Shown in pieces: positions 18,001 through 21,000 of a stretch of DNA of 40,851 bases. The DNA is from a virus. Lineage: Duplodnaviria; Heunggongvirae; Uroviricota; Caudoviricetes. Position 1 is the first letter of the stretch, and every line of letters starts with the position of its first letter. Position numbers: made by a program. Location of the stretch: the IMG/VR virus record IMGVR_UViG_2721755728_000008; one strand, written 5' to 3'.

Positions 18001-21000
18001 GATCGGCTTCACTCTGCGCGGATGCCACCGGCTGCTGCGGTGCCGCCGCGGCCAGAATCGCCCGGGCCTGTTCAACGCTCATGCCCTGTTGTCCTGCCAG
18101 CATCGTGGCAAGCTGTTCACGTCCTTTCGCTTCCTGGCATGTCAGGATCCCCATCACTCGCTGGTTCTCCTGCGCGGCGGCTTCCGTTGCAGTTAATTGC
18201 GGCATAGTGCCTCCTCTGACATTACTGTTCAGCGCCGTGGCCATCACACTGATGGCATCCGACGCATTGACTAATTCATCCGCCAGCCCGGCATCAATGC
18301 CGGACTGACCTTCAAAAACGGCGGCCTCTGTTCCCGTGACGGCATCAACAGACAGACCGGTAAACATCGCCACTTTTTCGGCAAACATCCGGCGCGCCGC
18401 ATCAATGCGCTGCTGCATGTCCTGGCGAACCTCTGCCGGTAAGGCTTCAAACTGATTGCCATCCACCTTGTGCGTCCCTGAGTAAATCAGCGTGATATCC
18501 ACACCGGCCTGCGCCAGATGACCGGCATAGCTGACATGGCTCATCATCACGCCAATGGAGCCGATACGGGATGTCTGGGTAACCAGCCGTCGGGAGCAGG
18601 CCGACGCCAGCAGCATGGCTGCAGAACAGGCCGTGTCATTGCACAGTGCCCAGACCGGCTTCTGCTGACGGAGGCGGTAAATCATGTCAGCGCAGTCAAA
18701 CGCGCCGGCGGCCTGCCCGCCCGGACTGTCAATGTCCAGCAGTACGCCCCGCACCTGGCTATCCGCCATTGCCTGCTGAAGACAGGCGACAATGCCGTCA
18801 TAGCCTGTCATTCCGGAAAATGGCCGCATACCCCCCAGCCGGTGCACCAGCGTGCCGGTCACCGGCAGTACAGCAATACCGTTCACCACCCGGTAAACAC
18901 GGGCCGGTCGTTTACCTCCGGCCATGTACTCGTCCGTTTCAGCCAGCATTCCGGGAGCATCAAACTGTACCTGCTGTTGTGGTACCGAAAGACTTGATGC
19001 CCCCATCTCGCGCCCGAGCGCGCAAAAGAAAACCCGCGCATAGGCGGGCTCCAGAAGCAGCGGTTCATTGAATGCTGCGGCAATAATGTGTGAAAGATTA
19101 CGTCTCACGTGGTGTTGTCTCCTCTTCCGGCCTGCGACTCTCCGCTATCTGCTGCTCATACGCCTGCGCTATCCACACCGGACGTGAGAGTCCGGCTTTT
19201 TGTCGCTCAGCAGATTCCCTGACCTGCTGGCGGAAAATGTCCTGATAATCCTCGCCCATCAGCGCCAGCTCTTTCTCATACGTGCTCAGTCCGGCCTCAA
19301 TGCGCATCACTGATTCCTGGACTTCCTTGAGCCCGTCAATGGCCATTCTTCCGGCTCCAATCCACTCAGCCCGTGACCAGGCTGATCGCGCCTGATAAAA
19401 ATCAAAACGCGCCCGTGGCGGACGAATAATCCCCCGAAGAAGTGCCTCTTCCAGCCAGCAGGAAAACATCTGCGTGGCCAGCCGGGACGCAATAAATTTT
19501 CGTCGTCCCATAAAATAGCGCCACGACTCATTGGCGGAGGCGCGGCACTTGAATAACTGACCTTCGAGTAATCACGGGACAACTGTTCGTAGGAAACGCC
19601 AAGACCGGCGGCGATATACCGCAGCAGCGCCTGTTCAAGCGCAGAAAATCCATTGTCTGAATCCTGCGCAGTCTGTAGTTTCAGATCATCACCAGGGAAA
19701 AGGTGCGGAATTTTGACACCGCCCAGTGTCACGTTATTCGTGTCATACCAGCTGGAGAACTTCTCCAGAATATTAATAAGCGGATTATCCTTCTGCTCCT
19801 GTGGCGCGCCGGCGATATATTCAAAGGCCTTTTCGGTATCAAGTTCACTTTCAATCGTCGCTGCATACATGGCTTTCACAATGGCCGACTGAAGCTGTGT
19901 TGCCTGCAGGGAATCCAGCATCTTCAGCCGTTCCATGACGCTGTAAAACTGATTAGCCCCACGGGTCTGCCCGTCCTCCACCGGCTCGAAAATATGCAGC
20001 ATGGCCGGACGCCCGGTGGGAAGTTCACGCGGGATCCGTTCCCATCGTCCACTCCCGGAGCGAGGAAAATCATCCTCACAGATATGGTACGCAACGGCAC
20101 GGCCATATCGATCGACCTCCACCCCGGCCCGCAGAAAACGGTTCCCCATACCGTGTCCTGGCGTGTCCACCCGTTTCGGACTCACGGCTTTAAAACGCGT
20201 ACGGAAACAGTTGCGTGCTCTCCGTATCCCAGACCGGCTGCACAAAGATTTCGCCGTTAAACGCATGAACGCCCACACCTTCACGAATAAATTCCGTAAA
20301 CGTGCGTTTCTCTTCCACGTCGATCTCGCCAGACATCCCTTCGGCGTATTCCGACCAGGCCGCCTCCACCTCATCGACAAAACTTTTTGCCGCAGTCTCC
20401 CGCATCCCCAGCCAGCGCCAGTTCGGACGGTAGCTGATCAGAAACATATGCCCGACAATATGATCCTTATGCAGGGCCACCGCATTGGCCGCTATCCCGT
20501 TATTGCGCACCAGATCATCTGCCCGGGCATTCCCCAGACGCAACGCAGGCAGCAGGGCTGCATCGGCACTCTGCGCCGGTGGCAACCACTCCGCCATTTG
20601 CCCGCCAAATCCTGCGCCGCCCCCGTTGTAGCTGAGACTCTCACGAAGCGGAACGCCGTTCACATCAATCAGGACAGGCGTTCGTTTCATAACCTCACTC
20701 CCAGCGGACGACGGCGACGTCGGGTTGTCCCCAGTACCGACTCCGCATCATTGATCGCCCGGTTAAGCTCATCCAGAGAAGCCGCCGTATATTCAATTCT
20801 GCGACCATCTTTCTGGACAGACACCACCCGTTTACCGGTTAATAAATCAAGGCGCGCCTGACGTAGCGCCTGTAGTTCAGCGACTGTAACCATTCACTCC
20901 TCCGGACAGCTTCGCTGCCAGTTCTTTCAGGGTTGGCCGGGTCGTCTCTTCTTCCCGGGATTTTGCCAGTACAGCCAGATCAAGCTGCCAGCGTTGCACG

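Follow-up and report, generated by a model that had tools for sequence, protein, structure and literature searches.

Two compensating frameshifts in a lambdoid prophage portal gene lie at the apparent ends of a block from a paralogous allele

A portal gene divided between two reading frames

The DNA analysed here, a stretch of 40,851 nucleotides that we refer to as the window, contains a portal gene interrupted by two compensating frameshifts, which raises the question of whether this gene belongs to a genuinely defective prophage or was broken only when its sequence was put together. Comparison with annotated relatives showed that the window is a lambdoid prophage of Escherichia coli whose late genes lie on the minus strand. 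Its gene content comprises nleB2, tail fibre genes, lom, J, sodC, I, K, L, M, H, T/G, V, U, Z, FII, FI, E and D, then a C-like S49 protease, B, W, A and Nu1, and then lysis, Q and regulatory genes. The order of genes around the portal gene is the one annotated in these relatives, and the features of this region are as follows:

20877..22805, ORF of the large terminase subunit (TerL)
20687..20893, ORF of W (head-tail joining)
19098..20690, minus strand, disrupted portal gene of the lambda gpB / phage 21 type, 1593 nt as delimited by homology
20190..20690, minus strand, ORF1, the N-terminal portal fragment in the native start frame, 166 aa, ending TQLFPYAF-TAA with the TAA at 20192..20190
19307..20380, minus strand, ORF2, carrying the portal homology between the lesions, 357 aa, in the +1 frame relative to ORF1
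19098..19511, minus strand, ORF3, the C-terminal part of the portal, 137 aa, in the native frame shared with ORF1
17603..19108, minus strand, ORF of an S49 peptidase, a gpC-like prohead protease/scaffold

The gene at 19098..20690 was recognized as a lambda-family portal gene both from its place between W and C downstream of the terminase and from its homology to characterised portals and to the Phage_portal_2 profile (PF05136). This profile is matched by ORF1 over positions 2-127 (E=1.9e-29) and by ORF2 over positions 122-339 (E=4e-60), such that the two ORFs jointly span profile positions 2-339 of 354. At the nucleotide level the gene is 97.3% identical to the portal region of phage 21 and 99.1% identical to portals of E. 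coli prophages, and despite its indels it has the 1593-nt length of the intact homologues. Instead of a single uninterrupted ORF of approximately 530 codons, however, we found three ORFs in two frames and a TAA at codon 167. A preliminary description of the locus had assigned the three ORFs to different frames; there are indeed three, but ORF1 and ORF3 share one frame. The amino acid signatures given there are correct in full: the first frame ends in TQLFPYAF-stop, and its return is marked by YSSA then APPPMS instead of RASANESW.

The list of ORFs and an alignment to two intact 1593-nt homologues, phage 21 (OL657228, CDS 2824-4416) and E. coli 2015C-3163 (WP_106919091), bore out the proposal of a +1 shift that breaks the gene and a compensating -1 shift after it. 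The alignment to intact B genes had been suggested at the outset as a check, and it contained exactly two gaps, which confirmed both lesions. These gaps, at 20203/20204 and 19543-19546, agree with the extra G reported in a GG run near 20203 and with the C reported missing near 19545:

20203..20204, +1 site with one extra base, gene strand TTTCCGT where homologues read TTTCGT or TTCCGT
19543..19546, -1 site with one base lost, GCC^GCG where homologues read GCCCGCG or GCCAGGG

The extra C on the gene strand of the +1 site corresponds to the additional G in the plus-strand GG at window positions 20203-20204. Here a single base has become a run of two (C to CC), while at the -1 site a run of three has been trimmed (CCC to CC). 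Seen against the homologues, variant site 486 displays both its T and its C allele at the +1 lesion, and variant site 1147 (C/A) displays neither allele at the -1 lesion. The distance between the lesions, put earlier at 658 nt, is 660-661 nt, and native-frame portal homology resumes at about 19543 in the frame of ORF3. The native start is predicted to yield only the 166-aa N-terminal fragment and, as deposited, the sequence would encode no functional portal. The original statement that no functional portal can be made thus holds for the sequence as written, in which the native frame stops four codons past the first lesion and conventional full-length translation does not occur.

The lesions delimit a block of a second portal allele

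Portal genes of this type are multi-copy, with a median of two and up to five copies per genome in complete E. coli genomes. When 5,426 such genomes were searched with 61-nt probes centred on each lesion, the +1 lesion was found in none of 2927 gene copies and the -1 lesion in none of 2779; every match to either probe had one gap and none reached 99% identity. The +1 and -1 junction patterns were likewise without an exact match among species-representative genomes, viral contigs and metagenome contigs. An exact-product look-up recovered no other record of the 166-aa product of ORF1, while the 137-aa product of ORF3 occurred on four other contigs, which represent 5'-truncated portals that lack the deletion. 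Repetition of a lesion in an independent sequence of the same lineage, as expected of a pseudogene, was therefore not seen in these collections, which may simply not include the source lineage. Among contigs that encode the exact large terminase of the window (366 blocks on record), almost all have an intact 530-aa portal adjoining.

Closer comparison of portal alleles indicated that the two lesions are not placed at random within the gene. The segment between them corresponds to the following feature:

19544..20204, minus strand, block of a second portal allele (C3 / pDCE7-1 type), 661 nt, intact-gene positions 486..1146, one base out of register

In 14 complete genomes this 661-nt block, the 'extra' C included, is found in full, uninterrupted and at 100% identity. 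The flanks belong to a different allele, which we call the backbone and which is represented by loci L004, L006 and L007 and by IAL7252. The window is identical to these backbone loci from 22857 to 20205 and again from 19543 to 18627, and the backbone portal differs from that of the window at 16 positions, all of which lie within 20063-19574, inside the inter-lesion segment, with no mismatch in the flanks. Conversely, the inter-lesion segment shows no mismatch to C3 and 2015C-3163, and divergence from them begins at 19542, directly after the deletion. A table of the variable columns among homologues revealed no private substitution in the portal gene of the window.

Both alleles are present together in the isolate DCE7, with a backbone copy (L010) on the chromosome (CP090611) and a donor copy (L026) on pDCE7-1 (CP090612). 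Joining L010 positions 1-486, L026 positions 486-1146 and L010 positions 1148-1593 reproduced the window gene at 1593/1593 positions, and among chimeras built with offsets of -1, 0 and +1 only the (-1,+1) register did so. The gene therefore consists of a segment identical to one paralogous copy between flanks identical to another, as expected of a chimeric artefact; co-residence of the two alleles is demonstrated only in DCE7, which is an isolate other than that of the window. The protein that an in-register version of this mosaic would encode, from an intact 530-aa ORF, is absent from approximately 15 billion catalogued proteins, and no complete genome carries the same portal mosaic, with a best match of 99.1%. 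Since both the mosaic and the indels are private to the window, they probably arose together.

As read from these alignments, the two lesions appear to be the left and right junctions of one paralogue-derived block. How strongly the coincidence speaks depends on the donor. Given that 2015C-3163 does not differ from the backbone in the 720 nt around the left site, a donor of this type leaves a left crossover interval 720 nt wide, and with a 31-nt interval on the right the conservative chance that both lesions fall at the block ends (627/1593 for the insertion times 31/1593 for the deletion) is about 0.8%. If the donor was instead C3-like, the two lesions lie exactly on the variant sites that delimit the block, and the chance drops to the order of 1e-6. 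Both figures are post-hoc estimates.

A second anomaly and the sequence that surrounds it

An anomaly of a related kind was detected in the tail genes:

8312..8760, inverted block in tail genes K/I, 449 nt, running from the 3' part of K into the start of I

This block is flipped relative to every relative examined, and no complete genome spans the inversion junction. There are no inverted repeats at the junctions, where microhomology amounts to 0-1 nt. When turned back, the block matches a common K/I allele of O26:H11 strains at 100% identity, an allele that is also carried by a second prophage of strain C3, and its flanks match a different allele (L022), again at 100%. The donor allele departs from the window directly beyond both ends of the block, at 8310 and 8311 and at 8761, respectively, such that the ends of the inversion coincide with the first donor/backbone difference outside the block. 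Differences from the backbone inside the block span only 8435-8689, and we therefore rejected the idea of a separate haplotype patch within it that shares the edges of the inversion. By sequence comparison, the misplaced block appears as an exact stretch of identity with a paralogous copy, the same signature as in the portal gene. As deposited, the sequence is predicted to encode neither an intact K nor an intact I.

The head region as a whole is mosaic. Painting it with the two DCE7 alleles, the chromosomal one being A and the one on pDCE7-1 being B, gave A (22197-20207), B (20204-19574), A (19542-18794) and B (18626-18038). The last of these segments is a patch of donor type in the neighbouring gene:

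18038..18626, minus strand, second donor-type patch in the gpC-like gene, in register, with the ORF intact

The 501-aa product of this gpC-like gene was not on record in the exact-product look-up.

The nearest relatives among complete genomes are IAL7252/7254/7255 (99.7% identity over 24 kb) and C3 (99.6%), and overall sequence quality was judged against C3. The alignment to C3 covers 29.2 kb, with 107 substitutions and only three gaps. Two of these gaps correspond to the portal lesions, and the third falls in the tape-measure gene of C3, a gene annotated as frameshifted. The tape-measure product of the window is a common one, with 147 blocks on record. A window that is error-ridden in general was rejected on these grounds, with three gaps in 29 kb and one of them a defect of C3. 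At least three relatives cover 28.6 kb of the window, and within this part just two private substitutions stand in isolation (8515 and 28703). Nearly all other private bases of the window are clustered in patches in J and H, which probably represent further haplotypes beyond the sampled relatives. The private events thus comprise two indels and one inversion as against two isolated substitutions in 28.6 kb, with none in the portal gene. The neutral point substitutions that should accompany pseudogene decay are all but missing from this set, and the spectrum of private changes is unlike that of neutral decay.

Origin of the lesions

The explanation that we favour, and which we consider probable, is that the portal lesions are a block-level artefact of assembly, consensus calling or finishing between paralogous prophages, a cause to which the anatomy of the lesions points. 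The sequences of two near-identical prophage copies would have been merged during assembly, consensus calling, polishing or finishing, with the donor being a paralogous portal allele such as that carried by a second lambdoid prophage of the same cell. The block would be the stretch of exact identity common to both copies, and the errors would fall on the variant sites at its two ends: on the left both alleles (T and C) would have been kept, resulting in the +1 shift, and on the right neither (C or A), resulting in the -1 shift. A candidate step is a mixed-allele consensus in a gapped or flow-space alignment, in which TTT-C against TT-CC would be written as TTT-CC, and CCC-G against CC-A-G as CC-G. 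An alternative candidate is an off-by-one when repeat segments are joined. Either step would yield the observed result, and the proposal stops short of naming the exact software step. On this reading the portal gene of the actual prophage would be intact and in register.

Homologous recombination and mismatch repair give rise to in-register mosaics, in which a boundary base is neither duplicated nor dropped and a tract is not flipped. Where reads or contigs of near-identical prophages are merged, repeats appear as blocks bounded by the differences between copies. We prefer an artefact because the blocks end exactly at differences between paralogues, because the gene is multi-copy and because assembly errors concentrate in repeats. 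Repeats are indeed where both residual and newly introduced assembly errors are concentrated, and polishers can add errors there (PMC8812927). Some points count against this explanation. If the donor resembled 2015C-3163, the left indel does not lie at a visible allele boundary, and no specific assembler step has been named for either the one-base shift of a block or the flip of 449 nt. Related prophages also include some whose portal genes are genuinely frameshifted or deleted.

It is possible, if doubtful, that the lesions are real and that the prophage is genuinely defective. A conversion or template-switch tract of 661 nt from the portal gene of a co-resident prophage would then have slipped by one base at each junction or, in a variant of this reading, an ordinary in-register conversion would have been followed by two small indels. 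Only the 166-aa N-terminal fragment would be made, and the prophage could be packaged only if another lambdoid prophage provided the portal in trans. The +1 shift has a plausible route, in which a nascent end ...TTT re-pairs on the donor TT before the C and so avoids a 3' mismatch, and the -1 shift could have arisen by a slip in the CCC run on return. There is no driving mismatch for the -1 at the right junction, however, and no comparable rationale for the inversion, whose junctions share just 0-1 nt of microhomology. Co-resident lambdoid prophages do recombine, and many are defective in morphogenesis, the portal included, and can be packaged with the help of others; the prophage pool of O157 Sakai has portal-defective members of this kind, which are packaged with their neighbours' help and recombine with each other (PMC2669165). 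Relaxed selection is also plausible, given a frameshifted integrase common to C3 and IAL7252 and other pseudogenes that independent assemblies of relatives share. The portal itself is disrupted in other assemblies, at L008 by a 1-nt deletion and at L012 by a deletion, and the adjoining in-register patch of the same donor type in the gpC-like gene resembles the normal mosaicism between prophages. Against this, indels at the ends of a tract are not normal for homologous recombination or mismatch repair, three private structural lesions contrast with a near lack of isolated private substitutions over 28.6 kb, and no other genome searched had the lesions or the in-register intermediate.

A more specific form of this scenario, in which the lesions are real and stem from one template-switch event between co-resident prophages, with the 661-nt tract rejoined off-register at both ends and a sister event in K/I that inserted a 449-nt paralogous tract in inverted orientation, seems unlikely to us. 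Were it true, it would provide evidence that error-prone, replication-based (MMBIR/FoSTeS-like) exchange between prophages inactivates prophages in E. coli.

Two independent base-calling errors of opposite sign in short homopolymers of the same gene are very unlikely. Run length is altered at both sites (C to CC; CCC to CC), the portal gene has no private substitutions, and long-read and flow-based platforms err mostly by indels (PMC8812927). The runs in question are only 1-3 nt long, however, while the 76 runs of at least 3 nt and the five runs of at least 5 nt in the gene are untouched, and the remaining 29 kb hold no other window-specific indel. Both sites would also have to lie at the ends of a foreign-allele block by coincidence, at the conservative chance of about 0.8% or far lower with a C3-like donor, and the switch of alleles would be left unexplained. 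The preliminary description had raised homopolymer sequencing error as an alternative to mutation; an error of some kind has been strengthened by our results, whereas two independent slips have been weakened, since the inter-lesion segment is the 661-nt block of the other allele.

Programmed recoding, in which ribosomes would shift by +1 at the stop of ORF1, UUU_UAA_A at gene positions 496-502, and by -1 at A_AAU_UUA (gene position 1192), is scarcely credible and was rejected, since the motifs are present but no homologue has the lesions. Both motifs lie in the right frames within the rescue windows, the shift at UUU_UAA would restore ...F-KAVSPKR, and the product would be an almost complete portal in which 3 and 16 residues are altered. 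Programmed frameshifts are conserved, whereas the frameshift site here is not, with about 2,900 homologues being single-frame and free of both lesions. No Shine-Dalgarno-like element is evident in the sequence beside UUU_UAA_A or A_AAU_UUA, and neither site appears to have a structural stimulator next to it. A_AAU_UUA is moreover part of conserved coding sequence, where intact genes read it in a non-slippery register, and two inefficient shifts in series would leave negligible product.

If the lesions are an artefact, as we consider probable, it would be wrong to score the prophage as defective in head assembly, and the record is best kept out of pseudogene counts and prophage-decay statistics, with the same caution for the K and I tail genes. 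As a diagnostic, compensating frameshifts with an intervening switch to paralogue alleles mark a chimeric consensus rather than mutation. If the lesions are real, the window would add one more defective lambdoid prophage with effector cargo (nleB2 and others), whose spread would depend on a neighbour's portal, as for O157 Sakai. Whether artefact or pseudogene, the finding is biologically ordinary.

Taken together, these results can be set against several known systems. The window shares with the phage 21 portal gene (UMO75419.1) and lambda gpB both the 1593-nt length and the order Nu1-A-W-B-C-D-E-FI; unlike those genes, its frame is broken by a +1 and a -1 shift 661 nt apart, leaving 166 aa in the native frame. 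The UUU_UAA context in ORF1 is reminiscent of the shift-at-stop logic of prfB, and as there a change of frame would be needed for a product. In contrast to the +1 shift of prfB and the -1 shift of lambda G-T, the sites in the window are unconserved, are without evident stimulatory elements and would require two opposite shifts. The explanation that we favour can be compared with errors in the assembly of repeats (Wick & Holt 2022, PMC8812927), in that the errors in the window lie in a multi-copy element, break ORFs by indels and involve alleles of a paralogue. The one-base shift of a block and the flipped 449-nt block differ from the error types described in that work, and it is we who attribute them to the same source.

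For a genuinely defective prophage, the natural comparison is with the defective lambdoid prophages of EHEC and EPEC, such as the Sp prophages of O157 Sakai (Asadulghani et al. 2009, PMC2669165), with which the window shares a lambdoid prophage that combines effector cargo (nleB2), sodC and lom with apparently broken morphogenesis genes. Several near-identical Sp prophages share the Sakai genome, where they recombine and can complement each other (PMC2669165). Unlike the Sakai defects, the lesions of the window are private to one sequence, are read from its consensus and coincide with the two ends of a block that derives from a paralogue. In Sakai the defects were called in silico on a finished genome, and induction, packaging and transfer were then tested experimentally (PMC2669165).

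Donor-type sequence in the head and tail genes

In addition to the displaced block of the portal gene, a second patch of the same donor type was found inside the neighbouring gpC-like gene, where it lies in register and leaves the open reading frame unbroken.

17603..19108, gpC-like gene
18038..18626, donor-type patch within it

The 501-aa S49 protease/scaffold product of this patched gene has no record anywhere. Further along the late region, the tail genes K (encoding a C40 peptidase) and I contain a clean inversion of 449 nt relative to all relatives examined (window 8312..8760). 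The inverted block matches a different naturally occurring K/I allele, of the O26:H11 type, at 100% identity, and the ends of the block fall exactly on sites at which donor and backbone vary, with no inverted repeats at the junctions. The K open reading frame of the window encodes 181 aa (8599..9144), compared to 247 aa in relatives, and the inversion junction is absent from every complete E. coli genome.

Sequence context of the ORF1 stop codon

The stop codon of ORF1, the truncated N-terminal portal fragment, sits within UUUUAAA (window 20190..20200; GCG UUU UAA AGC on the gene strand). A +1 slip of tRNA-Phe at this motif would regain the portal frame with just three residues altered. Since intact homologues conserve this sequence as part of their coding region, we judged its occurrence at the stop to be due to chance.

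Disruptions in related prophages

Private disruptions are also present in related prophages of public assemblies.

Private disruptions in head and tail genes of related prophages
Strain C3 (L003), 12503: 1-nt insertion in the tape-measure gene
2015C-3163 (L001), opposite window 18600-18613: 14-nt deletion in the S49 peptidase gene
CP148535 (L008), opposite window 19435: 1-nt deletion in the portal gene
CADFZN010000033 (L012): deletion spanning portal to FII

Breakage of head and tail genes is common either in this lambdoid prophage family or in its assemblies. Among the related loci, the 420-kb record NZ_CP090612.1 (L026), labelled 'plasmid pDCE7-1', bears a complete lambdoid prophage late region that is closely related to the chromosomal one in the same isolate, DCE7; the record may represent a piece of the chromosome that was misassigned, or else a prophage-carrying plasmid of very large size.

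Insertion site and cargo genes

Copies of the prophage in relatives adjoin tRNA-Ser and mtfA, and a frameshifted integrase is present in relatives at a position outside the window. Cargo genes were positioned by annotation transfer from two relatives, L003 and L017.

1..981, nleB2, type III effector, at the left edge
about 7105..7632, sodC, between J and I
about 30200..30480, tRNA cluster (Arg, Arg, Ile), upstream of Q

Such cargo is typical for lambdoid prophages of EPEC and EHEC.
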